Assembly (NCBI GenBank): GCA_965655095.1
Contig: OZ296659.1
Span: forward strand, 13,764,001 to 13,828,000
Origin: Haplodiscus bocki
Taxonomy: Eukaryota
DNA: 64,000 nt
Reading direction: 5' to 3'
The notes beneath the pieces were generated by a model that was given only the letters and a program-made list of their open reading frames with translations, ran no database searches and had not been told where the DNA came from. Positions within the stretch are counted from its first letter, which is position 1; each line of letters starts with the position of its first letter. Position numbers and translations under genes: made by a program. Shown piece after piece: positions 9,129-28,900 of this stretch.

Positions 9129-9561
9129 TTACCCGAACATGACAGTTTGGAGGGAAGCGGTTTTAATACTGTTCTCAAACAGGGCCGCTCTGTTCTGGTG
9201 ATCGCCTCGCTTGACCCAATGGCCATAAATACGAAAGGCACAGCTGTCAATCATTTTTCGAACAACTTTAGAATTGTATGGAGCTTTGCACAGAAGTTCT
9301 GGAGTAACTGGTTTTTGCTGCACTTGAAGTCTAAGTCTAACTATGCTGAGAACTAAAAAGCCAGTTGCTCGCAGTTTTTGACGGGCGTTGAAAGCCTTCG
9401 CTTCGTAATCGACTTCGCTGGGGTTGAAAGTGACAAAGAATTCGTGTTCTAAGGCTTCTGCAGCTGAGATGCGTTTCAAAGGGTCTACTTCCAACATTCT
9501 ACAAATGAGGTCTTTGGCTACGTTCGAAACATCTTCCCATTCAGGAGAATCGAAGTTGTAT
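9129..9561 (-). CDS. PHKG: Phosphorylase kinase gamma catalytic subunit, last coding exon (kinase C-lobe end and calmodulin-binding regulatory tail)
   Basis: Acceptor ttgttccag| (phase 2). Encodes YNFDSPEWEDVSNVAKDLICRMLEVDPLKRISA and the PhK-gamma tail motif IDSCAFRIYGHWVKRGDHQNRAALFEN. Stop at 9129. Confidence 0.93.
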
Positions 9562-9839
9562 CTGGAACAAAAATTCATGAAATTTGAAAAAGTTCAAAGC
9601 ATTTGAGGTAATAACAGTAGTTATTACAGTACAGAAGGTATAGCCAATAACTTAGGTTTTGCAATCATTATCTGTTCTCAAGAACGTGTTTTTTTGTACC
9701 TTTTTGAGGTATGCAGTTTTTACTTGCTTCTTTACCTACCATTAAGCCGCTCAACCCTAAATTGACTTTCCAATTCACATATTGGAATTAAAAGATGGGG
9801 TTGACTACACAATATTTATGTAATCAGGTAATCACGTAC

Positions 9840-10101
9840 CTGCCCTCCATGATCATTCGCAACATCATCATCTGTCGCTTGTGCCAGAAGGGGGGTCTGC
9901 CTGACATGAGGGTGTACATGACCACTCCACAGGCCCACATGTCAGTTGGGCGGCCGTATCCCTTGCTGTCTATGTTCATGGAACACTTTAGCACTTCTGG
10001 GGATAGATATGCTGGAGTGCCCATCAACTCTCGCAGCTCCGTGTCGTGCGAGACAAACGTCGCAAAACCAAAGTCACTGACTTTGATATTCACGTTTCCG
10101 T
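9840..10101 (-). CDS. PHKG: Phosphorylase kinase gamma, coding exon 3
   Basis: Acceptor cttgtttag| (phase 1), donor |gtacgt (phase 2). Encodes VSDFG, LRELMGTPAYLSPE, DMWACGVVMYTL and PPFWHKRQMMMLRMIMEG (PHKG-typical). Confidence 0.93.
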
Positions 10102-11479
10102 CTAAACAAGTAGAATCATTTTTGAAAACATCCCACATGCCAAAGTCAATAAAAAAAGCAACGCGATGAAGACTAAGTTAATCCTATTCAAAGGGGTTAA
10201 TGAAATTCAGCGGCTGAACAAGATAATTGTACAAAAGAGTATTTTGAACGGAACTTCAATGGTCGCGAATACAGATACTTCAATCAGACATCAAAAATCA
10301 TGACAAATTTTGGAAGTAACTTACATTAGAGATAGCTGCTCAAGCAAGCCGGAACGACTCAAGATGGCGCCGCCCGTAAAGCCTAAAGTACATGGATTTC
10401 CGCAGTGTTTTTTTTGGAAAAAAATTGTGGCTTTTCCGTCAAACAATTTGGTATATTCACTTTTTTTCAGGCGGAAATTTCGTCGCACATTACCGAAAAT
10501 TTAGTAGTGATTGTGTGGTATAATATACAATGCTTGAGAGGGTGATCAGTTCAAACATTTTTAGTTTTTCCAAAAAATTTTCGATACATAGAAAGGGTCC
10601 CACGAAAAAATTGTAGACCGAAGTTCCACATTTTTTTTCAAAAGACAAGTGTAAAGAGTATCATAAAAAATGATAGTCTTCTTGAAATTCTTTGGATTGC
10701 AAGAGCAAATAACGGCACTTTTCAATGTCTGCTTTTACAAAAAAATGGAACAATGCAAAAGGGAGTCAAAAGAGTGGCAAATTACAAAATTTTGCAATCT
10801 ACCTTTGCTATATCTTTTGGCTATACCGCGTTTAGGTACGTCTCAAAAACCCTTCACAATAGTCGGTCAGTAAAACGTCGTACACAGCGTGCGCGTCAGT
10901 ATCTTAGAAACCGCTACTATGATAGACCGTATAGTCCCTCCTATACACCCACCCAGCTTTGTTGCGTTTTGAATTTTTTTTTCACACATCGCACGAAATT
11001 CCTTATTTTGGACGAGATCCCAAATGAACAAAAAAAGCGTCAAAATATAACAAAAACCGAATAACACTGAGAGTTTCGTATAATCATCATTTTCCGAAAC
11101 GCTGAAAATAGGAAATCACTGTTTTCAATTGGAAAAGTTCATCTCGCACTGTCGAAAAAATCGCAGGGTTACCCCTTGGTATTATGAAAAACTGTGCTTT
11201 TCGAACATTTTTGGTAAATCGAAAGTGTCATCACAATTTTCGTCTCAAAATACCGAAACAATCCGCGGGGGCACCCTTTGGTGTTCTCATTTCGCATTCT
11301 CAATTTTTCTGCACAGGTCGTACGGTTAGGTATCAGAGAACAGCTTTTTCTTTATCACCTTCCTATGGAGTGTATGAAATCAATCATCATTTCCGTCGAA
11401 CACAAAGTCGAGTCCCACTCACACAGGCGAACTTTTACCTGAATGCAAAGCGCCGGCTAAAACAGAGCCGCCGATAGTT

Positions 11480-13600
11480 CTTGACTTGAAATTAAGTGTG
11501 CGAAGAACAAGTTACAATCGAAAATGAGTCTTAGGAAAATTAGTCTCAAGAAATTAGCGACAATTTAACTGAAGCGAAGGACGCCGCGGAGTGTTAGTTA
11601 CAAGTTATGAGAGCAGATAAGCTGGAAGTCCGGGCAAGTCTGGCTGAGGAAGCTGAAAAAAACCCTGACGCAGTTAGTAGAACAGGAAAATCTAAACTGG
11701 ATACCTTTTCAAGACTCTTGCACATTGCTCCAGCAGAAATTTGTTTCAGTACTTAGAAAGAAAGAACATAAAAGTTGGATGAATGATCATACACTTGAGT
11801 TGATGGAGGCACTTCGTCAGCGAAAAGAACACCATTCGACAAAATTATCGACGAGAAACTTCGCCGGGCATGTGATCTTGCTATGTGCTTAAATATGGAT
11901 CAGAAGTGCGGAGAAATCGAACAGCTACAGAGAGCCAACACCCCCTAAGAGTGCCACAAAAGAATTAAGGAAATGACGGCTAAGAAAACAGCCCGTTCCG
12001 GAGTCCTAGAAAAAAACACTGTGAGATTTTTGACAAAGATGTCAGAAAACCATGAGAGCAGTACATTGGAAAGCTACTTGCGGATTTTCAGAGAACATCT
12101 TCAGCTCACACTTTCTGACCCCCTGTCAGAACCTATATTGAAAAGTATGATCCAAGAAGCTAAAAGGAAGATGAAGAATGGCGAACCATGTGGGGCGAAT
12201 AAATTCCATGTAAACTTTTCAAATTAATGGGTGACGCAGCAGTTGAGGCGTTCACTTCGAATTTCAACATTTGGTACGAAACATATCCCTTCACAATGAC
12301 TTCAAGCGATCTATTTTCTTTCTTTTATCAAAGTCAACTGAAACAACAAAGTGCGAAGACCATCGATTGACTAGCCTAGTGATCAGGCGTTAAAAAGTTT
12401 GCTGGAAAATCTCATAAATCGAATGCAAACAACAATAAAAATGGAATCAAAGCAAACAAGTTGGGCTTCATGGGTGAAAGAGGTATAAAAATGCAACCTT
12501 CCTAATTCGTGTGTTGCGTGAACGGATGATAGAATTAATGATTGACATTTTACTGCTGTTTCTTTGATTACAGCAGGACTTTCGAGAAAGTACACCATAG
12601 CATAACGTTTGAAATTCTAGCCGATCTCGAATTGTATGATAAAGACATTCGACTCTCACAAGAGATATAATTCCAACAAGATGTAGTTGTCAGACACACG
12701 AAAAGCCTGTCAAGTCCCATACCAAGTGAAAGAGGTGTTCTTTAAGGATGTGTTATGCCGCCCGATCTGTTTAACGTGTACACCGAGGCCATTCTGAGGT
12801 CTCTGCAAGATTAGTCAGGCGTAATTGTCCATTGACACAACTTAACAGACATTCAAAATGCAGATGACAGCCCTATTGCAAGCAATGTGCGAGATCTACA
12901 GAACTTTTCGAACTGCGTGAACGAAAAATGTCATGAATTCGATATGGAAATCAACGAGAAGACAACGATAATGAGAATCTCGAAGAACAATGATGCTCCG
13001 GGCGTATGTGTTCAGCTGGATGATTTCTCTTTGAAATATGTTGGCTCCTCTAAATACTGGAGATCGATGATAATATCCGATGGTAGATGTCAGAAAGACC
13101 TGACAACCCAAGTAACAATGGCCAAAAGCGCTTGCAGTGACATAAGGGTATACTCTGAAACCTCACGATGCCTTTTAAGCTGCGGTTCAGGATACTCAAA
13201 TGTTACATCTACCCGATATTGCTCTATGGGTGTGAATAGTGGACTCTATTGTAAGATAATCAGGCCAAAATCGAGGCTACAGAAATTCTTGAGACGAATG
13301 ATGACAATCAGTTGGACAGCGAAAGTGAGAACTGAAGGTGTCCTCCGTATCACCAAACACCGATCTCCCCTCAGATAGGTGGCCAAACAACAAATCAAAA
13401 TTTTTGGACATGTGTTGAGAAAAGTGGAGAATTTAGTGATAACGGGGAAAATTAATGGCAAGAAAACATGAAAAAGATAGAGATGGAGGATGATGGACCA
13501 AATCAAAGCTTGGACTAGTCTAGAAAGAGCGAGGACGTGATCAGAAGAGCAAATTAGAGACAACTAGTGACCGCCGAAGTCAATTGATATGGCATAAGAA
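11480..13600 (+). mobile_element. Decayed RTE-clade non-LTR retrotransposon (RT region) in PHKG intron 2, antisense to the gene
   Basis: Broken RT motifs: KCEDHRLTSL, CCFFDYSRTFEKV, RGVL*GCVMPPDLFNVYTE, IQNADD (YADD), KYWRSMIISDGRC. RTE-like 3' end tgaccgcc...atatggcataagaag. Many stops and frameshifts. Confidence 0.8.
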
Positions 13601-14645
13601 GTTGGGAGAAGATAGCAGAAGTTATTGATAAGTGAAAATAGATGGAAAATAATGATGAACAAATCGTTTCACAGGAGGCAGACGTTGAATTGAGGCTGTA
13701 AGATTTTCGCAGCGACGCAGGGAGCACAGTGTGGGTCGAAAAGAAAAGTTAGGCGCTTCGTTAAAGAAAAATGGGAGAGTAGAGGCCGAGGGAAGACACA
13801 AATGGATGAGCACCGAAGGAAAGCAGCGATTTTGTTGTACAAAGGGACTTGGCAAAAGACGGGTGTATGGGTGTTAGAAAAAGACAAAGTCGATGATTCC
13901 CAAGAAACTTGTCATAACGAGGGAATGCGTGAGAGATAATTATCTAAGGAGGTAAAGTAGGAAATAGTACACAATGAACCTGACAAAGTTATTGATTTGG
14001 ACGACTTGGAAATTGTCGGACCAAAAGCCTCAGCTTTTTGAACGGAACCAAGACCATCAAGCGGATTTGATGACGAAATGTGACTGAGAACAACACATGA
14101 TTCTACGGAAATCGTGTTCATCCGCAATGTGCCAGAGGAAGTCGCAACAACTTAGAGCCCCCAGAAGACAATTATAATTTGAATGAACGGTACATACTGA
14201 GTTGAGCTTAATGTTGATATCCTGTTTATCCTATATCCTATCTCTTATCCTATTTATACAAGCCAATAGTTCCTTGTTGATTGGACAGTTAATATTATTG
14301 GACATTATTGAAAAAAAATCTTTTTAATGTAATTGAGTAATGTAGTAAAGCGCCAGCTCGCATGATGATCTGAAATAGAATTGGTGTTACAAGTTGTTGA
14401 CAGATAGTGATACACACGAGGTGCGATTTCTAATATTGTTACTTTGGCATACTACCGAAAGCGAGGATGAGATTAATACACTCTTTTGAATAAATTGTTT
14501 AACTCATCCAACCCGATAACGAGTGCACACAAATATGCTATTGAAAATATTCAGAAAAATTAATCTTCCGATATCGGGGAAATTACACTCATTAAAAAAA
14601 TGAACGTGTTTGTCTGAAAAATTTGTATGAGTGCAAATGACTGAC

Positions 14646-14883
14646 CAAGTAGGATGTTTTCGGGTTTAATGTCTCGATGGACGATGAACTTGCTGTGCAT
14701 GTGGGCAAGAACTGAGAGTAGTCTGTGCATGATCTGTCTCGTCTTCTTGCTAGAAACCGTGACCACTCTCGTCATGTAGTCAAACAGTTCTCCCTGAGGA
14801 CAAAATTCCAGCACCAGGAAAATGAACGATCTAGTCTCAAACGACTCGTGCAACAATATTACGTTCTCGTCACCACGCATCTC
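14646..14883 (-). CDS. PHKG: Phosphorylase kinase gamma, coding exon 2
   Basis: Acceptor ggtctttag| (phase 0), donor |gtcagt (phase 1). Encodes FIFLVLEFCPQGELFDYM and the catalytic loop IVHRDIKPENILL. Confidence 0.93.
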
Positions 14884-15923
14884 CTAAAGACCGGAAACAA
14901 ATGAGAGTCGACTATTGAGTCGCCTTTTGAATAAAGATTTCACAAAAACTACGTCTATTAACATCGACAGACTTTTCGTCCTCAACTGAGGACAACCATT
15001 TCTCCAGAATCAATTGAAGATTACACAATACGAAAAGGACACTCAAAAACGAAAGTTTGTTTTTATTCTTGCAATTGATTGGGCTAAGCATGATGAAAGT
15101 ACACTTCATCGATCGAACCTTTCTCCAAACTACTCGAAAAAAAAACGCCGATTTTTGGTAGATTTTTCGATTTCTCGTTGGACTGACGCGGCGAAAAAAA
15201 CGAACATTTTCACACATCATTTGTAGACTAATCATATAATAAAGTTTAGCGCGATTTTTCAAAACCAGAGCTTTTTGGAAAAAATTATTAAATTTCCCAG
15301 AAAAAGAATGCACATTATGAATGATGTACTCATACTCCAAATCAAATTTCTATGTAATTATACTCTTGAAATCAGCATCTCACTCTAGCTAGGTATAGTT
15401 TCAATAATGAATGAAAAGAAGAGGGGAGTATCAATCATTCACGAAATGACCACAAAATTGAAATTTGTACAGATTGTGTCTAAAAGTGAAGTTAGGACAG
15501 TCACGCACGTTGTTGACTGGTCCTAACACGAGAACCATGATGTCAACAAAAATGTGACCGAGCATTTTTTGACTTGATTTGTAAATTTTTTAAAGAGGCG
15601 AAACTGGGCTTAACAACACTTGCACCAGCAGAATACTAGTGAACAAACCAAACAATATGACTGATTTTTGAAGGCGCCATGATAAAACGAAACTACTGAT
15701 CAAACAATTAAAACAGAAATTTAATTAAGTCGGTTAATTCTTTACAAACTTATATACAAATGTAACAAGTACGAACAGCTATACCAGTTATCTCCCTTTA
15801 TTTTTAAAACAAGGGCGCACGCTGGAAAATAGGCCATTTGAACGATTTTTCGCAACTGCGAGAGCGCATGAACGAAATCTAGGCAACATTACAATGAAGG
15901 CACAAAAGCGACTTGTGAATGTA

Positions 15924-15974
15924 ATCGGAGAAGAAGAATCAGAAGCCTGTGGTATAACACCTGCTTGCGCAAGT
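15924..15974 (+). repeat. 3' fragment of the same SINE family as 6310-6480
   Basis: atcgga.aagaa...tataacac.tgcttgcgcaagt is shared with 6429-6476. Confidence 0.55.
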
Positions 15975-15992
15975 CAATGATCTTTCACGTAA

Positions 15993-16606
15993 GTAAGGGG
16001 CAGTACCGAGAATCGTAAGGGGCAGTACCGAGAATCTCCATATTCGTATTATAGCGTCCCTTAGCGTGGGGAGCTATTTGTTGTGGTTATTTTTGGCTAA
16101 GACTTGAATTATGCGGCTACCTTTCTAAGTAAAAATGTATTTCTTCCAGGTATAAAGAGTTGAATTTTTTGTTAAACGAGAACTCACATTTCAGATGAAG
16201 GTTTACAGCAGAATGATTACAAATATTTCCAGCAAAATTGTTTACAGCATTAAAACGATTACAAACTTATAGTTGTTCAAAAATTATTGGGAGCGATTAT
16301 AAATGTACTTCTAATCCATTAGAAATTGCCGACAAGCGGCGTGACTTGAACATTCGGTCAAACGAAAACAATTATTCAGCGCAAGCTTAGCCAATAAATG
16401 CAATATTAGAGAGTCGCGGTGATACGAGGGGGGATGATTAACATTACTGCATCAGGATTAAATGCGAAGGAAATTTAAGCACTACAAAATGGCAGGCCCG
16501 GAAATAAATGTGCACTGAGAAAAATAAATAACCGAAAAGAAATACTAAATTGACTTTTGCGTAAATAAAACGAGAAATGTTTTCTGTTTGTGTTTGTTAT
16601 ATTACA
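15993..16606 (-). repeat. Putative 3' LTR (~600 bp)
   Basis: On the minus strand it starts TGTAA at 16606, right after the purine tract aaagaaggg (16615-16607), and ends ...ccccttac. The terminal 22-mer gtaaggggcagtaccgagaatc is tandemly duplicated (15993-16036). No second LTR is present to confirm the call. Confidence 0.55.
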
Positions 16607-16677
16607 CCCTTCTTTGAAGAATGCGTCCGCGCATGATGAAAGAAGCTGAGGGGAAGGGTGGGTGAGAGAAGAAGTCA

Positions 16678-17440
16678 TTACAAGAGGTCGTCCAAGGATT
16701 CGTACAGGGGTCTGGGGTTACAGTGGCGACAAAAATGTGTTGTATCTTTACGATTGACGGCACGAATGCCGCAACAGTCGTAAATTTTACGGGTTGTGGG
16801 GTCCACTATAATGTTGTGAATGGCTACAAGTTGCCGGGAGATGTTTCGATCAACACCGGGATTACGATCTGGACTACAGAGGCGGATTAATTGATGGTAG
16901 TGCTTTTTAATATCGGCGGTGGAAGTGTGGCGGTCAGCGGCTAAAACTGTGTAAAGGAAATTTGTGGGCGTAACTTTGTCCATGTATACGATGTCAGGCA
17001 CGGTCAATTGATAAAGAAGCTGGTGTAGGAAGGGGAGAGCTTGACCGTCCGCATACAGATTAGCAACTTGGGTTCGGAGATCAGAGATCGTATCCTTTGA
17101 ATCAGCGAGGTTCCTGTCGTCGAGGCGTTTCTGGCGGGTCATTTCTTCGAGGGACCGCAGTGTGTCTTCGTAAGTTTGTTTCTGTTTTTCGAAGGCTATC
17201 TCTAGCCGATGAACCGACGCTTTTTGTGCTCCCAACTCCTTGCGAGTGTCAGCCAAAACCTGCTCAAGTGTTTCTACAGCTTCATTTTTTTTCGATGGGC
17301 GGCAAATTCAAGGTTTTCGAAGCTGTCAGTGTAGCACGAGACGGAAGTTTGAATGGGGGTTGTCATCATGCCGAAGTCTGCAATGTCTGGTAAGACAGGA
17401 GGAGGGGTGAGGGCGAGTAAAAAGGCAGTTCACAATCCAT
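16678..17440 (-). pseudogene. Accessory gene: coiled coil + DnaJ-like domain + Cys-rich tail (open frame 17256-16678; upstream part needs two frameshifts)
   Basis: LYTVLAADRHTSTADIKKHYHQLIRLCSPDRNPG...LVAIHNIIVDPTTRKIYD matches the J-domain consensus (Y.vLgv...as..eIKkaYr.la...HPDkN...i..Ay.vLsDp.kR..YD). Heptad region upstream. ATG at 17440 (MDCELPF). Confidence 0.75.
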
Positions 17441-17661
17441 CGGCTCGGTGTTGATAGCCAGAGATTGGAGATTTTTCGGGGAAGTCGCATTTGGGTGAGA
17501 AGAGACCTGATTTCTTGCTTCCCATCGCTGGAAACACCATGAGACTGTCTGATGTGGGGTTGCAGCGAAGAACACGATAAGGGGTGGGGTCGATGAGAAA
17601 CACAATAGAACCGGACTAAGAGTCAGCAGCAGAAGAAGCACTGGGCAAAGCAGAAGAGAAC

Positions 17662-17685
17662 CTGAAACAGAAAATAATTAAAACC
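17662..17685 (-). promoter_or_regulatory. Candidate splice acceptor ahead of the J-domain gene
   Basis: ggttttaattattttctgtttcag|G on the minus strand: branch-like ttaat, pyrimidine tract, CAG. Confidence 0.55.
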
Positions 17686-17738
17686 TTTTTTTGGGCAAAG
17701 TAAAAAAGACAAAAAAAAACAGTGGGCGACAAAAAAAA

Positions 17739-18139
17739 CTCGTGCCAAGCACGGAACTACAGCAGAGCTGTGAAATGCCTAATCTGGTGAAATACACACG
17801 GAACTGCAGCAGAGCTGCGGGACTCCTATCCTCGTGGGGAAAACCACGGAGAAAAAAAAGTGCGAAGTAGATGTCTCGTGAGTGAGTCACGGAAAGCGTA
17901 GCGGGGCTATGCCCTGAACTACTGGAAACCAGCGGAAACTCGTGGAAAACCACGGAAAGCCTAAAACCTCTTCAGCAGAGCTGAAGGATGAGAAGGGGAA
18001 CCTATTCTCAAGTGTTACACTCACAGTTCCAAGACTGTGGACCTAAACTTTCTCGGTGGAAAAGGCACCGGTAGGACACGTAAAAAATAAACTCGATACT
18101 AAAGTATCGGAAAACTGATCTCGGCGGCTGAGCACCGAT
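17739..18139 (-). other. Array of ~13 short stem-loops of two types with compensatory substitutions
   Basis: Type A, CT-stem-loop-stem-GA: 17739, 17784, 17831, 17875, ~17920, 17939, 18020, 18052, 18092, 18120 (the 17784, ~17920, 18052 and 18120 copies deviate). Type B, cagc-aga-gctg: 17759, 17806, 17970, plus variant tagc-ggg-gcta at 17899. Confidence 0.75.
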
Positions 18140-18164
18140 AAATGATAGACGTAGAGGTTTGAAA

Positions 18165-20463
18165 TTATGTCGCCGAGGTGTAAACATCAGTTATGTCAGG
18201 ATACAAGGGGTTCTGAGGAGGAACGCATGAGGTTATTTCTGTGTCACTTCGAGCAAGGAATTCGCGGGCCAATCCTTTGACAGCCAGGAATTCAGCATCC
18301 GTCATGCACAGGAAAGCTGTTGTTACGTCGTTATCATCGTCGTTCAGGTTAGGAACAATGTGTAGGAATCGGCCGTGCGTGCCGCGGAAGAACCGTTGTG
18401 GGTGTTTGAAGAGACGTTGCCACTGACGCCGGAAGAGCGTAAAACTGATGCTGAAAGAGAAAAGAGAAATAGTCATGGATACACATGCCAGTCAGAAAGC
18501 AGTCCGCATAGGCATGTAATCTGCTAAAGCACGACTGGTGTAAGGAGAAATTGTCGTGTAATAGTGTGAAATTGGTTGGGCCACTGTGCGAAGATCCTCG
18601 TTGGTCATTGTTTTCACGTGGGGCAAAGCTGCCAACTCCAATTGTACGCTAGAAACAATCTCTCTGCAGGCTTCACCAAATGAATACACGTTCAAATCGC
18701 CGCTGGCAGGAGGTGGGGATTAAAGACTGCAGCCAAAGAAGGTGTGAGTTTGACTGATGCAACGAACGGCTCGGGTCGGGTTTCACAAAAGTCCATATCG
18801 GGGGTAAGAACAAGATCCCCGTGATTGAAGGTGAGTGTGGACGAACAACTGGGTCGAATAAGACATGCTTGACACTGGAGGGTGGATATGGATACAGGTA
18901 AACCATCGGTGTCGTTTTTGACCTGTAAACGAGCAGTACGAGATATAACGTGATAAAGACCATCCGCTATATAGGAAGCTTGCGGGGCCTCAGGCAACAA
19001 GACAGAGTCCACTAAACAATTGCGAAGAGCTGGGATGCTGTACTCAAAAAATAGAGACGTTAGGCAAAGAAGAGTTTCATCAGTTGTGGTAGAAAAACCT
19101 TTACTGCATAATTTAATTCGATTTGTTCCAGAACATTAACTGAGGGTAGTAGCACTCAATTCAGCATACTGTGAGTTATCAGTAGCGATGGCCATGAACT
19201 CATGAGAGAAACGATAAACCGAAGCTGTCGTACCATCCTCGTTGGGTTGATGCAAAGGAATGGCGCAATAGGCATCGAAGGTGGACGATTTTGAGTTCAT
19301 CGGTATACCTAAGACAATGGAGAGGCCTTCTTGCAAAACAGTGATTTCGAGCACAATTTGGACTTCATAGTAGGTATCCTCAAAACCAACTTGAATCGCG
19401 GGTGTCAACTTCGTACCTCGGCGGATCTCTTCGGCGGTAAGGTCCTCGACGATTGCAGCAAGTTGATCGGAAGTGAGGAAATTAGGTGGAACAAATCCAG
19501 AAGAGCGAGGACACTGCGGAATACATGGAGGTCTTACATAACACAAATGAAGCACGATAAGATTTCAAATGCATAGAAGCAAGGTCCAAGTAGGACGTGT
19601 AATTGTGGACTTTGTCCACAATGATTTCGAAGTGACGCTGGATACTCATGCAATTACTCATAATGATAAACTGGGAATCGAGTTGACGAATGGCTTATCC
19701 TGTAGCATCTAAACGGGCATCGATAACGTCTCGTGAGGCTTCAACGCTCTTCTGGTATCAGCGATTTCTGTGCCCAGAAGGAAAAATTTTTCGTTATTGG
19801 CTTGTTGGACGCGATGGAGACTTTTCTCAAAGGCAGCCTGACGCTGAAGTAGATTGCGCACATTGTTCTTCAAAACGGAGTTATCACTGCATAAGCTAAA
19901 GATGGAAAGGGCTTTGCAGGCAGCATTTCGTGAAACAAGACCGGCGACACCAGAGGCTGCCATGAGTGCGGGAACAAGTCGTCGTTGTCGATGATGAGGA
20001 GTGCCAATAGAAGGAGGCTGCATTGGGGGTGGTGCAAATGAAGATGCAACACGTAAGAGTTCAGCGTAATCTTGTGCAATAGCAGAACGTTCATCCGCAA
20101 GCAGGTGGACACGATATTCAGTACTTTCTCGGAGGCCATTGGCTCGATCCAGGGAGGTGTACATAGCGATTGCGCAGGGCTCGTCAGACGCAACTGTTTC
20201 TAGAAAGGGCAAGGAGGTTAATTTGTTGTGAATGTTACTGACGAGATCAATAAGCGAATCGACTGCTGTTAAATCAACTGGTGGCAGCTTTGGAAAAGGA
20301 GAAAAGACACGAACTTTGCTTTCACTTTCTGAAGTGACGGCTTGATAGTTATAAATGAACGCAGCGCCTTTTTGGATAATTGGAGTGCCATCTGTAGGAG
20401 GACCATCGGGAACAAACTGTCTCACAGGGACATTGGATACGAGAAAAAAAACGTTAAAAACAT
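18165..20463 (-). pseudogene. env: Envelope class I fusion glycoprotein (baculovirus F / errantivirus env-like), disrupted
   Basis: Hydrophobic signal (MFLTFFF..), furin site HHRQRR, fusion peptide LVPALMAASGVAGLV, heptad repeat LKNNVRNLLQRQAAFEKSLHRVQQAN, Cys-rich ectodomain, TM LACVSMTISLFSFSISFTLF + RRQWQR, cytoplasmic tail. Split over ORFs 19709-20425, 19136-19555, 18692-19012, 18492-18695 and 18165-18476. Confidence 0.8.
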
Positions 20464-20859
20464 GTTAGAAAGCAAAATAGGAACAAAAATCGAGAAAAAA
20501 CTATGGAAAAAATTAATTCTGAATTCACGGGTGATAAAATTCAAACTAAATGCTTACAACAAGAAAAAAAATACTTCTAAAACTTCTAAATCAGAATGTC
20601 AGCTTTTTACGTTTCAAAATTTTCGGCTTTCATCTTCCCAAGTGCTTAATACCGTGCTTAACACCCTCATTTTGATATCCAACGATTGAAATCTTAAATT
20701 GATTTCTAGCACGTGTTAAAAACAGACCATGTTAGTTTTCTGCCCACTCTGCTAAAAATGGGGTAACCTTTGATTAGAAAGCAATAAACCAGTGCAAAGT
20801 ACCAGCAGAAAAACATTTATTACGATAAACTTTCTTCAATAGAATGTCTATTAGCAAAC

Positions 20860-21129
20860 CTTGAGAATGACAATTTCGCGCTTTGTTTCGTCCACAATTT
20901 TCTTGCCCTCGTCCGATCCGATATCAATAATCTTCACCGCATACTCATCACCTGTAGCTTTTTCTACACATTTTCTGACCACACTCACCAACCCCCTGCC
21001 CAACACCTCTCGGGGCTCGTAGCGGGCATAGAACTCGGCCCCGTCCTCTTCGCAGGGCAAGTCAGCACCCCCTACAACCATGGGCACACCACCGGCAGAG
21101 GTGGCGTTTGCTGATTCAATTATAGTCAT
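20860..21129 (-). CDS. PHKG: Phosphorylase kinase gamma, coding exon 1
   Basis: ATG at 21129 with an in-frame stop upstream at 21174. Encodes EFYARYEPREVLGRGLVSVVRKC and YAVKIID. Donor AAG|gtttgc (phase 0). The four exons total 1203 nt, i.e. 400 aa. Confidence 0.9.
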
Positions 21130-21787: not shown

Positions 21788-22757
21788 TCAAACAACAGAT
21801 GGAAAAAATTGTTCACATATTGAAGAAAAGCTCTCAAAATCAGCATCGTCCAATTGCAAACAAGGATCAACTTTCGAGCCAACAGCTGCAGTTTCCTTCT
21901 CAGTTTCCGAAACAAAGGAAGATTCTAGGACCGCAGTTTGCTTTGTTTTGAAAGTAGTTTGTGACCCAATACTTTTAGTACGTTTTCGCTTCCGATTTGA
22001 ATTTTCAGAAACATGCGAAGCAACTTCATAGATTGTTTGGGTGTAAGCATTTTGAAATTCAACGATTTTTTCCGTTTGGGAGCAAACGTCTGTTGTTTCA
22101 ACATTGGGTTCATATTGCATCAATACACTTCCAAAAGGCAGCATACTGTTTGGTTTGAACAAGCTATCCAGAACTTTGCAACTTCGCGATACCAAAGCGA
22201 CCACGTTTTGGTCATTACTGTTTCTCGCGTTCGCAAAAACATCAGCAATGATAGAAACTGGTGGCGTACATTTAGGGTTTGGGCGTAAAACCATAGATTG
22301 TAATAGCTCCAAAAGAGCGCATTTTGAAGATGAAGATACAAGAAAACTGAAATTGGGGTATTTGCTCAAAAAGTCTTTGCCTAAACCGAGCTGGCTCGGA
22401 AATGCGGCCATTGCGATAAAAGCAACTTTGTTGTAGACTTCGTGAAGAGTAGCGGGTGATATGTAATCAGAGCATTCGCAGAGTACAGTTGAGCAAAAAC
22501 CCAAAAGGTCAACAATAAAACAGTTCAAGAGGTGTTTTGAATTTGATTGGCTGGTCCGAAAAAGTTGCAACGAAACTTCAGAAGCTTGATTACCGGAAGT
22601 AGTTGAGCAACCTTGTTTCCTCTTCTTCGCTTTCGGCTGTGACTCAACTGGTTCCGTGAAGTCCTCGTGAAACAGAACAAAGCGGTGGCAGGACTTAATC
22701 GATGACAACAGCACAGAATCAAGATGTTCTTTAGAAAAACAATAACGGCTAACTTTC
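21788..22757 (-). CDS. PELP1: PELP1/Rix1-like ribosome biogenesis (rixosome) protein, coding exon 2
   Basis: Acceptor ttttttcag| is in frame with exon 1 (CG|G). CALLELLQSMVLRPNPKCTPPVSIIADVFANARNSNDQNVVALVSRSCKVLDSLFKP resembles the conserved PELP1 segment LLLALLLAPSPRCPPPL...HPRVP. Basic NLS KKRK. Confidence 0.68.
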
Positions 22758-22868
22758 CTGAAAAAAAGTTAAAATTCAAAATTAATACCAGGATTTTTTC
22801 ATGAACATACAATTTTAAAAATATCTACGAAGGAAAGAATTCAAGTTTTCTCAATTATAAAAACTAAC

Positions 22869-23917
22869 CGAATAATTGTGCGAGCTGTGTATAGAACACT
22901 TGCCAGTAAAGATACATAATCTTCATACAAGCGCATTTGGTTAAAATTCAATGAAGACAAATAGTTGGAAGCTGATTTCAAATAGCAGTCAACTGTTGCT
23001 ACCACTCCTTTCATAGCCGGTAAACAAAGAGTCCCGCATCGCTGGAGAACCACATCCAGAAGTGATACCGTATTTTTCTGGATAGACCAAAAAGGACACA
23101 CGCCGCCATCCTCAGCTGGCGCATACTGCAATAATCTTCGGCACAAATCAAAAATCATGTTGACCGGGAGATCAACTAAAAGGTCAACCTTAACGGATAC
23201 CAAATGTTTGAGTATAGAAATCAGGCATGTAACAAACCCAATAAACGCATGTTCACTCAGTTTGAGCAAATCTTCTTTCGTGCAAAACATTTTAATTTCG
23301 TTGAGTTCATTTTGTAATCCGGCATTTTCTTTGACTGACGCATCTTTGTAAATTTCATGTTTGTAGCACAAGTGATAAACCGATTCGCATAAATGTGACA
23401 CATTTGATGCATAATGCAGTCTGAAAGACGAACTGTTCAGCGCTGACCATTTTCCAGCCAGGACAATTTTAACGAACAATTTAATTTTGCTTTCCTTTAG
23501 CCTCCAAGAGACTTCGGTGACGGACAGATGTGACAAATCTTTGAGAATTATCATCAACAAGCTTGTTCTGAATGGATTAACTGCGCCAGGAAAACGATCA
23601 ACAACTATTTCAAGCAAATCAATCTCAACAGTGTAATTTTTGAGACTGAATTCGCCCAACATCTCAGATCTCCCAAACGAACTAATAAATCCTTTCAGGA
23701 AACTTGAAACAATATTAGAACAAGAAAAAGTTTCCGTGTTTGACAAAAACTTTTCTATCTCTTCGGCCATAGCTTGTTTTTCCGATATTTTTTTATTCTT
23801 TTGGTTGAAAAGCGTCTGAATAATTCTGATTACTTTCGATGTTCCCTCATTTTGGTTCTTGGAACTTTTTAAAACTGCAAGATCCATCGCGGTTGTCTCG
23901 TCTATCATCAGAACCAT
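22869..23917 (-). CDS. PELP1: PELP1/Rix1-like protein, coding exon 1 (helical-repeat N-terminus)
   Basis: Long Leu-rich helical ORF. Donor CG|gttagt at 22868. A 111-bp intron joins it in frame to exon 2 (total 672 aa). A likely 5'UTR intron lies at ~23920-23981. Confidence 0.65.
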
Positions 23918-24241: not shown

Positions 24242-24341
24242 TGTAAAAACACTGATAATATTAATATGTATATTGTGAAACCCCACCGACAATCACTATA
24301 TCTGAAATAATACAGTATTTACATGAGGTACAAGTACAACA
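24242..24341 (-). repeat. Copia 3' LTR
   Basis: 98/100 identical to 28801-28900. Confidence 0.95.
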
Positions 24342-24589
24342 TACTGCTATTAATTTACCGTTTTTGTTGTTCATCTTTGTTGTCATCATCTTTGTTTCCA
24401 GAGATACAATAACCCGGGAAAAGGGATATCCAGTAATCCAAAGTATATAATCAAATACCCAGTAACACGCAAACCAGAATGTATAATAAAACGTTGCAAC
24501 AATAAAATAAATATCGAACCAAAACAATAAGATACTTTATCCAAGAGTAACAGGAACATAAAGAAAAGTAAGAAACTTGATCAAATTGT

Positions 24590-27500
24590 CAGACGCACGA
24601 GCTGAAAGCTTTGTTAAACAATCGGCGACCTCTTTGTCAGACGGTACCCAATAAAGTCGATTAACAGACCCAACATCAATATGAGACCGAAGACAAGGTA
24701 TCTCGACTCTCAACCCTTTGTCTTTTGGTTGAATATACGTTCTCCACTAAAGAACAACTGTCAGTATAAGCGTTAACTTTAAGCCTTTGCGTTGTTAATT
24801 CGAGAACCAATTTATGGCAAACAAGTGCTGCCTCGATTCCATTACAACAGGCAACAGTTTCTGCAAATAAAGTACTGCGAACGACTCGTCTGAGCTTCTG
24901 AGATCTCCAACTGAGTAAAGCTGGTTTACATCCAGGCTGATTAATGAATACCAGATAACCAGCTTGAGTACCCCCACAAGGAAGGTTACCAAATGACGCA
25001 TCTGTAAAACGTCAATGGAAAAATGTTCTGATAAATTGCTAAATTTCTGATAAATAAGGCATAAATCCGATGAAAACTTTAGCTTTCGTACGATTTTGTT
25101 TGCAGCTAAGAAATGACATCTTTGCCATTGACCGGCAAACGATAATAACGATGAAACAGCAAACGCAATATCAGGTCGAACCTGACAGGCAATCCATTGA
25201 AGTTTACGAAGTAAAGCACGTAAATCACGCATGTGAAATTTGTCGGCAGAAAGGAAATCGACTGAAACTTCTTTTACACCCGACAAATAGGCGGACAAAT
25301 CAAGTCGGATACAATTGTCTGTTTGAGAAATCTCAAAGCCCGAATAAGAAAAAGGAGTTTTCTGACTAGAGCGAACATCAAAAACTTCATTCAGCTTATC
25401 AATCACCTCGCACTTAAACGAGACATTTCCAGCCCATAAGAAATCATCCACATGAGTAGCTATCAAGCCGTACACGTCGCCCCGAGAATCTTTCTTGTAA
25501 AACAAACAAGGATCATACATTGACACGATACACCCGACATTCAATATTTCAGTTTTAACTCGGTCATACCAGTGACGCGCTGCGTCAACCAAACCGTAAG
25601 TACACTTCTTCAGTTTCCAAAGAACACCGACAGGAGCAAAACCAGCTGGAGGCTTGATAAAAACATCTCTCCGCAAGTCACAACCTTGTAAGAAAGCCGT
25701 ACGTATGTCCATAGTATTACACATCCACTGCATATAGGAACAAAACCAAATAAAAACTCGCAACGTGTCTTTTGCGCAAGTGGGTGAATCTTTTACGACT
25801 TGGTCTAAAGCAGGGTCTTCAAAACCCCTGAGTACCAAACGCGCTTTCTTTCGATCCGGCTTTGGGTCAGAACCCAACGACACGTCCTGAATGGTTGTCC
25901 AAGATCATCAACTTCTTCATAAACCGCTTTGGATTTCCAATTAGCTAGCTCGTCCAGTTTGGCATCTTTGTATTCATCCACAGTAGTGATGAAGCATTGA
26001 TCCGCATCAGTTGAACAACATACATCGGATCAATAAAGCGGATACATCGACATAATCAGTCTGACCAGCCAATTTTTGAGGAGACTGATAAATCACGTTC
26101 CACCAATCAGAAAACTCTCCAGTGGCTTTTCCACCTCTGCTCTTCACAACGGCAGTTATCTGTCTGCCATCAAAGTCTGGTACACGTGAAACAAATTTCA
26201 GTGTTTTCCCGATACATTCGGTTGAACTAAAGACTCCACATTTAAAGGTGTCGCTTGATCAGGCTCCGAATTAACCTGTTCATGGTCAGGCGAAGAAAGA
26301 TCAGGAATGGGCAACTGAGACTGCAAGGTAGATTCAACAACAGGCTCCTCCTCGTCGGAAGAATCACAATCAGGAGATGCAGATGCAGGGACATCCGACA
26401 ACACTTGAGAACTCGTCATTGTTTCCGCGCCTCCTGTTAAATCATCAGAGGTGGCTGTAGAATCATTACAGGAGGAACTCGAATTTGAATTGGACACTGA
26501 AAAACGCAATTTGGTACGGTGAACTTTGCACACTTTACCGCCTTGCTTAACATATACAACAGCTCCATCTTGGCCAATAACAAAACCTGGACCTTTCCAT
26601 CGATCATCTGACTCACGTTTGTAAAAAACGCGATCACCCAAAACAAATGGACCATTGTCATAACGAAAATTTGACTTCAGTGCCCGCTTAATCCCGTTAC
26701 TAATATCCGCTTCAATGAAGAACTGTCTGGCTTCGTTCAACTTGAACAATAATTTTGACACCGATTCACTAGTGGTAGTGCACTCAAGAGCCGGAGGCTG
26801 ATTAGTAAATATGGAAGGTAATCGTGGTCCGCATCCAAATGCAATCTGATACGGAGAAAACCCATCATGGTTAAGCATGCTGTTCTTAGCGAAAACAGCA
26901 GTTTTGAGTGCAGTTTCCCGGTCGTATTGATGTGAATCATCAGAGATAAGCCGGTTAAACATATCAGTGAGTACAGCGTTATGGCGCTCAACAACACCAT
27001 TTGACCACGGCGAATACGCTGCAGTAGTTTTCATGACAATATCGACATTTTCTGCGAAAGAATGAAAATCAGCGTTATCAAACTCCCCTCCGTTATCAGT
27101 CAAAACAGCTTTTGGGTAACCGAAAGATAAACACCAGTTACGGAAAAATTCGGTAATGGTGGTAGTCGGCCGTTTATTAGTAATGAACACTGCTACTGAA
27201 AAGCGACTGAAAACATCAATCATGTGAAGGTACCATAAAGAAAGACCAGAACCACTAACTTCATGTAAATGAAGTGAAACAGTGTGGTTCCATTCTTGGG
27301 CCAGCGGTAACCCCACAACAGGCCTCGGAAGATCACGGCCGAAACGCTGGCAGACATCGCAATCATTCATAACGGACTTCACTTGATCAACTGTTACAGA
27401 CACACCCGCTTTTCTCAGTAACGCGTGTAATTTTTCACTGCTACAATGAGCAAATTGTTTATGTAATTTCTCAATCTGAGAATCATCAACAACTTGAGAC

Positions 27501-28782
27501 ATTGCTAAACAACTAGCAAACACAGTTCTGTCGAAACTAAAATCAAGAAGGAGGTGTCCACTGGTGGACATAGACAGCTGTATGGGGAACTTCTCACTGG
27601 TATACAATGTTTTGTTCGCAAAATCTATCTCGAAACAAGCTTTAGTCATCGAGCCAACACTAATCAATAACGGTAGATCTCCAGGTATCACAAAAACAGT
27701 CAGCATAAACGAGGTATCCCCAAAACGAATAGGAATTGTATACTTCTTCTTAGCACAGACTCGATAACCGCCCCCATAAATGATGTAAGAATCAGATGGC
27801 TGAACAGACACTAGTTCGCGTTGCTCAGGAGAAAGTCTGTTAAGATAGTTCTCCATCCAGGTAAAACCAGAAACAGTAACTGTACAAGCAGAGCCAAGCA
27901 CACCTTTACCAAAAGATTCCTGTAACAGAGAACCTGTAACCATCGCCAAAATAATATAAGCTGTGCCATCACCAACATCAGTTTCACGAACTTTCTTCGA
28001 TTCTGCATCGGCCTCCTGAGAAACATGCGCCGATTTTTCTTTATCAGGACACGCGTTGGCCCAATGGACACGTGAACCACAAACTGCACATGTAGAAACT
28101 CGACCATCCTTGTTCAGAGGATTTGTTCCAGTTGGTCGACTTCCTTTCTTACCACTGAATTTGGTATTGGGACGTTGATAAATCTTTAACTCCCACCCTG
28201 CCCAGATGCAAACACTGGCTCCTCCTTTATAATCTGAGTAGCGTCACTTGGAACAGACACACTCGCAACGGAAGAAGAGGAAATCCTGCGTAAACTAGAT
28301 TTCATTTCTTCATAAGTCACCTGTGGAGTTGCAGATAAAGCCAATTTCTTGTCCCGCTCATCCAAATCAGAACAAGAAAGCAACTTCCAGGCCAAAACTG
28401 CAGGAGGAAGCACTAACTCGTGTTTAACTAATTTCTGGTACAAAGAATCAAATAAAGTGATATACTCAGTAATTGGCTTGTTTCCACGACGAAGTTTTTG
28501 AAACATTTCATAATCATGAAACATTTCATCGACAAGGTCTCGTCCAAATAAAGACTTTAATTTATCCAGTAACGTCTTTAAGCCTGTCTCGGCTTTCAAA
28601 TCTGCTAAAGGGATAGCTCTAGCGGCCTCGCGCTTAGCACCTGTTAATGATAAAGCTACAGCGGGAGCCTTTTTTTCTTCTGCCAAACCAGTAACGGCAT
28701 CCCACATTTCCACTTCCGTCTTCCAAGACTAATCTAAGTCGGGTCCCCATGCCGGTGGGGTTTTGTAATTGGTGTGGGACAT
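24590..28782 (-). pseudogene. Copia gag-pol polyprotein with stops and frameshifts
   Basis: ATG at 28782. Zn knuckle CAVCGSRVHWANAC. Protease motif mutated to LGSAC. Integrase LHKQFAH..CDVC, IDVFSR, TDNGGEF, VERHN. RT KARLVLRGFED, YGLVDAARHWY, HVDDF. RNase H end VADCLTK. Confidence 0.93.
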
Positions 28783-28800
28783 CTGCTGCTCCTGCTACCA
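28783..28800 (-). promoter_or_regulatory. Primer binding site complementary to the initiator tRNA-Met 3' end
   Basis: tggtagcag(gagc) directly follows the 5' LTR; animal tRNAiMet ends ...CUGCUACCA. Confidence 0.85.
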
Positions 28801-28900
28801 TGTAAAAACACTGATAATATTAATATGTATAATGTAAAACCCCACCGACAATCACTATATCTGAAATAATACAGTATTTACATGAGGTACAAGTACAACA
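28801..28900 (-). repeat. Copia 5' LTR
   Basis: Matches 24242-24341 and is flanked by the TSD GTAAC. Confidence 0.95.

Follow-up and report, generated by a model that had tools for sequence, protein, structure and literature searches.

A J-domain protein is the fourth gene of env-bearing Ty3/gypsy elements in Haplodiscus bocki and may act as an adaptor for host Hsp70

We analysed a window of 64,000 nucleotides from Haplodiscus bocki (contig OZ296659.1, positions 13,764,001 to 13,828,000), and window coordinates below count from its first letter. On the minus strand, positions 16050–20445 hold a 5'-truncated, env-bearing LTR element of the Ty3/gypsy type that aligns with five full sister copies across about 4,440 columns at 91.5–92.3% identity. 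The element consists here of env, a further gene that we call ORF4, and the 3' LTR (16050–16601, minus strand), which is 89–90% identical to both LTRs of sister copies. gag, pol and the 5' LTR are absent from the window, and the 5' halves of the sisters align to it at the LTR only. The env gene is broken into four pieces in two frames (18168–20449, minus strand) that are 88–95% identical to the sister env. The whole element lies in an intron of a host protein kinase gene (9129–21129, minus strand), recognised by consecutive parts of PF00069 on four exon-bearing frames (20851–21129, 14560–14880, 9824–10138 and 9129–9578); we take this gene to resemble phosphorylase kinase gamma. Just beyond the LTR end is a perfect 22-bp tandem duplication (15993–16036). 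Elsewhere in the window, positions 24242–28900 (minus strand) hold a Ty1/copia-type element with 100-nt direct repeats that are 98% identical and integrase and RVT_2 frames inside. The minus strand also has two frames, 207 and 358 aa long, that lack a Pfam match (21788–22411 and 22841–23917) and are possibly exons of a neighbouring host gene.

ORF4 is present in the window as a set of pieces, all on the minus strand. Its 3' piece is a 209-codon open frame (16678–17307) that is 91% identical to sister ORF4 over 198 aa and contains the coiled coil, the J domain and a Cys-containing tail. The J domain (16777–16956) matches PF00226 with an E value of 5.9e-9 and 36.3 bits against a cut-off of 27.8, and a structure model of a sister protein also has the J fold. 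A J domain had been claimed from the letters of this DNA alone, in what we call the sequence-only reading, and the profile search bears that claim out. The same reading had the J domain fused to a coiled coil, and there is indeed one long helix, predicted to form a coiled coil, ahead of it at 17026–17283. Its treatment of 16678–17440 as one unit holds for 16678–17307, which is open, but the rest crosses frame breaks and the gene begins near 17660. The upstream parts of ORF4 occupy three other frames (17274–17429, 17366–17677 and 17430–17615). They include a Pro-rich linker piece (17274–17429), where the copy is broken and leaves the frame of the J piece, and an SH3-like (KOW/Tudor-type) barrel (17490–17612), also out of frame with the J piece. 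The barrel, which we recognised through the sister model, forms the ORF4 N terminus; it lies upstream of the span first noted and had been overlooked. A likely splice acceptor, a pyrimidine tract with CAG followed by G, heads the gene (17662–17700). At the other end, the tail YDCCG...HFCRHC (16720–16782; general form Y-x-(C/H)-C-G ... C-x-x-C) is present as described earlier, but YDCCG is not separate from the J domain: it overlaps the normal end of helix IV and aligns with YDKYG of DNAJC5. The window copy is 5'-truncated, frameshifted in ORF4 and broken in env, and it is about 8% diverged from its sisters.

What does a complete element look like? Full sister elements are about 12.9 kb long and have LTR pairs of 554–593 bp. 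We consider them young because the LTR pairs are 95–100% identical and because target-site duplications were found in seven of eight tested elements (4 bp in six). Sister copies have a gag that includes a zinc knuckle and a pol whose domains follow the Ty3/gypsy order (PR-RT-RH-INT), then env, ORF4 and the 3' LTR, an arrangement that identifies them as Ty3/gypsy LTR retrotransposons and of which the window has the 3' part only. As in errantiviruses, env follows pol and is homologous to F-type glycoproteins; the 778-aa sister protein matches PF12259 (Baculo_F) with an E value of 4.5e-7 and 29.3 bits (cut-off 24.1). ORF4 is the fourth gene of these env-bearing Ty3/gypsy elements and lies between env and the 3' LTR.

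The elements also show features that are separate from ORF4. A Macro-like domain lies between RNase H and integrase in Pol (L098:4992–9761, L096:5094–9833 and L039:6334–9999), with PF01661 scores of 22.5, 20.0 and 15.3 bits that exceed the cut-off of 22 in one lineage. Our literature search for a Macro-like domain in such Pol proteins found nothing. Most lineage A copies have a 63-bp tandem repeat within pol (L031:8777–8987 and equivalents). The usual LTR ends are TG...CA, and the LTRs of lineage A (L031–L040) start with TATAAC and end with GCTATA. Lineage C encodes a fifth ORF after ORF4 (205–213 aa; L094:1837–2475 and L095:1941–2555) that is 66–67% identical between alleles and has no Pfam match; its start may resemble an SGNH/GDSL fold. 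Finally, L033/L034 and L049/L050 have paired LTRs and no long env frame and keep ORF4, which in L049 is without the barrel.

The ORF4 protein is ordered as a KOW/Tudor-like barrel, a Pro-rich linker, a coiled coil, a J domain and a Cys tail. We modelled a natural 329-aa sister protein from a 20-row alignment (mean pLDDT 74.2; pTM 0.36, at which domain packing is unreliable). This model replaced a poor 8-row model (pLDDT 59.6), with which Foldseek found no match at E 0.001. The barrel (residues 2–61, pLDDT 79–89) aligns with Spt5 (Z 7.8), NusG (Z 7.6) and the PHF19 Tudor domain (Z 7.3), and UBE2O and Tbtudor also fall within 7.2–7.8; these scores are tied and all below 8, and may reflect merely a common arrangement. 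By sequence profile, the best barrel match is to a small barrel protein at E 0.4, with a weak Tudor_RapA match (E 0.19) in one of eight barrels. Tudor readers have an aromatic cage for methylated residues; of the aromatic residues here, a Tyr and a Phe do not vary among the eight barrels, and a Trp is common. Following the linker, which is disordered in the model, a 93-residue helix (115–207; pLDDT above 90 over 131–200) has Z-scores of 7–7.7 to known coiled coils. The J domain superposes on Ydj1 with Z 9.2 and rmsd 2.1 over 74 residues. Its nearest solved relative by sequence profile is the J domain of DNAJC5 (E 4.3e-14), and the best viral fold matches are J proteins of phages and giant viruses (E 7e-4). 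Sister ORF4s score 46.1 and 52.7 bits against PF00226, and of the class A/B parts (G/F region, CxxCxGxG repeats and beta-sandwich) there is no sign, PF00684 and PF01556 being absent from 4 ORF4 proteins and 8 distant ones. Judged by profile, fold, HPD motif and the lack of these parts, ORF4 is a class C J-domain protein. The tail is poorly resolved, with model confidence dropping from about 65 to 46, and it matches no Pfam zinc family; zinc binding by its cysteines is plausible.

ORF4 extends well beyond the lineage of the window copy. Four further env lineages, in which env is 47–52% identical to that of the window, each carry ORF4 behind env. HPD is present in 42 of their 44 loci (19/20, 8/8, 7/8 and 8/8), and the other two were unread. 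Across ten ORF4 representatives with 20–69% identity, HPD is invariant and is the only invariant tripeptide across lineages, and its His and Asp are invariant throughout the 20-row alignment. The tail is also strongly conserved: its Tyr, second Cys, Gly, Arg and both CxxC cysteines are invariant in all ten representatives, and the first Cys is replaced by His in one lineage. Many ORF4 copies in the genome are broken. In all seven pairs compared, synonymous sites are saturated, with pS of 0.74–0.90 (which leaves dS incomputable for most ORF4 pairs), versus pN of 0.22–0.35. These values indicate that ORF4 is old and under purifying selection. The J domain is less typical in lineages C–F, in which helix II is without the KK.YR.L basic run of DNAJC5. 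This basic run contacts Hsp70. PF00226 often falls below the cut-off in these lineages (18.2, 18.3 and 24.8 bits; others 31–41), and one lineage C–F frame has no Pfam J match at E 0.01.

The start of ORF4 is conserved at the DNA level. All nine representatives compared have a pyrimidine tract and YAG followed by G or A, in the same phase, at the head of ORF4; lineage B was omitted from this comparison, as its sampled copy is without that region. In eight of the nine, the first in-frame Met is 41–112 residues downstream, inside or after the first domain. Together, the conserved acceptor and the late Met make it likely that ORF4 is produced from a spliced transcript. In contigs of four runs, the kind of which is unrecorded, none of the 15 joints listed (there are 68 more) is a GT..AG joint that uses the acceptor, a result that is uninformative either way.

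A second property of ORF4 is its divergence between elements that are otherwise nearly the same. In all four lineages with two sampled versions, env and ORF4 differ sharply in identity (env/ORF4 100/56, 99/68, 95/62 and 97/67%); the ORF4 allele pairs nevertheless cluster by env lineage. Versions A and A2 are 99.0% identical in their 5' halves over 6,165 bases, and their 3' halves are 98.5% identical up to a point within the barrel, past which just 99 LTR-end bases and one 72-base patch align. This pattern shows that old ORF4-plus-LTR cassettes are exchanged on one backbone. ORF4 exists as deep alleles that are swapped among near-identical backbones. The barrel appears to be the most conserved part between alleles (72–89%, a figure that breakpoints within ORF4 may inflate), and the J domain outside HPD is among the least conserved (46–67%). 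The swaps could be driven by the LTR rather than by the protein.

Do all of these elements need the J domain? In lineage G, with env 44% identical to that of the window, none of 20 loci has a J match within 1.5 kb of env, and HPD[KR] is absent from three 6-kb stretches. Lineage G has no J match, yet one of its LTR pairs is 99.85% identical; some active elements therefore do without the J domain, which is dispensable for at least one active lineage. Lineage G retains the barrel (tblastn E 2e-11), which runs directly into a CCG...C tail. This short ORF is open over 122–138 aa at three loci and in one longer stretch, is broken in others, and has no usable match in the protein atlas. It belongs to a cluster of small ORFs after env (L092:330–749, 938–1315, 1465–1944 and 2088–2453) composed of two RING-like ORFs, one unassigned ORF and the barrel-plus-tail ORF. 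The RING-like ORFs lie upstream of the barrel-plus-tail ORF, and their best match (PF14570, E 3.1e-4) is below the cut-off.

The window copy reads CSPDRNPG, as the sequence-only reading stated, with SPD in place of HPD (16867–16875, minus strand) and Ser codon AGT at 16873–16875. That reading took the protein for a decoy or modulator, in other words a selected pseudo-J protein that blocks or modulates Hsp70 as Pam16-like proteins do. Pseudo-J proteins exist (PMC13254874), and the change from His to Ser requires two adjacent base differences, which were argued to be more than decay could produce. However, the consensus of the copies is HPD. A 20-base pattern matched the 1.5-Gb genome once in its Ser version, in the window itself, versus 28 times in its His version and never in reversed controls. 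A protein search of the genome gave at least 151 matches (150 of 1,056 candidates were scored), and HPD stands in 25 of the 29 best sister loci and HPN, HLD and HPH in one each, with one unread (L028). His is kept in 28 of 28 readable sister loci, and the remaining deviations from HPD are singletons, just as SPD is. Nor does the double change require a special explanation. Between the window and one sister there are 293 mismatches in 4,440 columns, some of which lie side by side in 18 doublets, 2 triplets and a single run of four; this makes 25 adjacent pairs, where independent changes would yield about 19. Adjacent double differences are near chance level, so the doublet at the Ser codon needs no selection. 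Moreover, the copy with SPD is frameshifted upstream, its env is broken and its 5' half is gone. The likeness to Pam16/Tim16-type pseudo-J proteins lies in the absence of HPD in the window copy alone: in Pam16 the loss of HPD is a conserved family trait, whereas here a replacement is found in 1 copy and HPD in 28. SPD is a single change confined to one broken copy and is no trait of the family; the copy counts refute the decoy idea, and a selected decoy is close to inconceivable.

We therefore turn to the family for the function of the protein. We propose that the window holds a broken copy of a fourth gene whose sisters keep HPD, and that the protein likely serves as an adaptor, delivering host Hsp70 to a target; we give this reading a probability of about 0.65. 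HPD is needed for stimulation of Hsp70, and some viruses make class C J proteins of their own in order to use Hsp70 (PMC13254874, PMC3486835). The connection to host Hsp70 drawn by the sequence-only reading stands. The genome contains cytosolic Hsp70 genes ending in EEVD. An HPD motif that stays invariant under purifying selection probably reflects retained co-chaperone activity, and the order of the domains suits an adaptor. In our proposal, spliced RNA would supply the start of ORF4, the coiled coil would oligomerise the protein and space its ends, and the barrel, with or without the Cys tail, would select the client. The J domain would then trigger ATP hydrolysis by Hsp70 on that client, as in SV40 T antigen. 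The adaptor reading is weakened by the atypical helix II and the often low Pfam scores of lineages C–F, by the J-less lineage G, by barrel Z-scores below 8 and by the unreliable domain packing of the model.

What is the client likely to be? Our guess puts a complex of the host that acts in silencing or restriction slightly ahead of the Gag/Pol particle of the element itself, because one active lineage can dispense with the gene and because its alleles are deep and swapped. Hsp70 and Hsp90 have parts in the loading of small RNAs and in the effects of heat shock on the piRNA pathway (PMC11125864), and these roles make a silencing complex a candidate client. Taken further, ORF4 might be a modular counter-defence adaptor, in which the barrel binds a factor that the host uses for silencing or restriction, and an exchangeable effector then eliminates that factor. 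In most lineages the effector would be remodelling by Hsp70, engaged through the J domain, and where the J domain was lost it would be RING-type ubiquitin ligases, and the ORF4 alleles on identical gag-pol-env backbones would be the record of an arms race. We hold this extended version only tentatively, as a possibility with the odds against it.

As the main rival reading, an active co-chaperone might instead serve the element's own cycle through Pol folding or through assembly or uncoating of the Gag particle. HPD conservation and selection fit such a role equally well, the SV40 J domain serves capsid morphogenesis among other roles (PMC3486835), and the env-less copies L033/L034 and L049/L050 retain ORF4 or its J half, so that ORF4 is not tied to env. 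However, ORF4 alleles that are 56% identical sit on gag-pol that is 99% identical, which gives no sign of co-adaptation, and lineage G is active without a J domain; a role confined to the element's own cycle is doubtful in our view. HPD could also be kept for a role other than activating Hsp70, such as competing with host J proteins or acting as a scaffold, with the barrel and the Cys tail as the working core. Such a role would suit the unusual helix II and weak Pfam matches of lineages C–F, the low conservation of the J domain outside HPD between alleles, and the open barrel-plus-tail ORF of lineage G, which has neither coil nor J domain. We nevertheless regard it as rather unlikely, because the sole tripeptide that is invariant across lineages comprises the very residues required for Hsp70 stimulation. 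Could ORF4 simply be a captured host DNAJ gene that rides along as a functionless passenger? The many broken copies would agree with this, but frames stay open despite saturated synonymous divergence, ORF4 allele pairs cluster by env lineage, the splice acceptor is conserved, and no cellular protein with the ORF4 domain order occurs among the best 150 profile matches. A passenger gene is therefore highly improbable.

How does ORF4 compare with known proteins? We searched 1.84 billion representatives, among which proteins that do not belong to the ORF4 family match through the J domain only, and all matches beyond this genome that have the full architecture are ENA or Logan proteins. In the protein atlas, the window piece matched unnamed clusters only (0.76–0.77). 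A 498-aa prediction from Macrostomum lignano (P0227) has two J domains joined with gypsy integrase pieces; it could have arisen by insertion into a host DNAJ gene or by independent capture. In polyomavirus T antigen, the virus encodes a class C J domain linked to further domains and uses it to steer host Hsp70, as we propose for ORF4. T antigen, however, belongs to a DNA virus and has its J domain at the N terminus of a replication protein, whereas ORF4 is a stand-alone ORF of a retroelement with a C-terminal J domain that follows a barrel and a coiled coil; we saw no sequence link between the two. Rki of phage RB43 (057w) and the J proteins of giant viruses (PMC3486835) are like ORF4 in being encoded by mobile elements, but only the J domain aligns and none has the order of barrel, coil and Cys tail.

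Among retroelements, the closest comparison is with the metazoan errantiviruses with F-type env of Chary and Hayashi (PMC13524379). They share with the present elements the LTR-gag-pol-env order, the order of pol (protease, RT, RNase H and integrase), the F-type env and the presence of many near-identical copies. What sets the present elements apart is the J-domain-bearing fourth ORF, together with a Macro-like domain in Pol. DnaJ, J domain, chaperone and macro are absent from the main text of PMC13524379, and DnaJ from its 7 supplements. LTR retrotransposons of bdelloids likewise carry 3' accessory ORFs that are family-specific and exchanged as modules, but those extra ORFs encode enzymes (GDSL esterase and DEDDy exonuclease) in the env position, whereas ORF4 encodes a J protein (PMC5408684). 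DnaJ does not occur in PMC5408684 or in a short review of accessory domains (PMC6338049). A search of the open full-text literature, judged mostly by title and abstract start, found no retroelement-encoded J protein.

Virus-encoded J proteins have been described from polyomaviruses, phages and giant viruses, and we found none for LTR retroelements. If our reading is true, a simple retrotransposon can possess accessory genes in the manner of retroviruses and steer host Hsp70 with them. It would thereby become possible to test a standing question, namely whether the retrotransposons of animals encode active means of countering silencing by the host, and the natural contrasts are already in this genome: ORF4 alleles on identical backbones and a lineage without the J domain.
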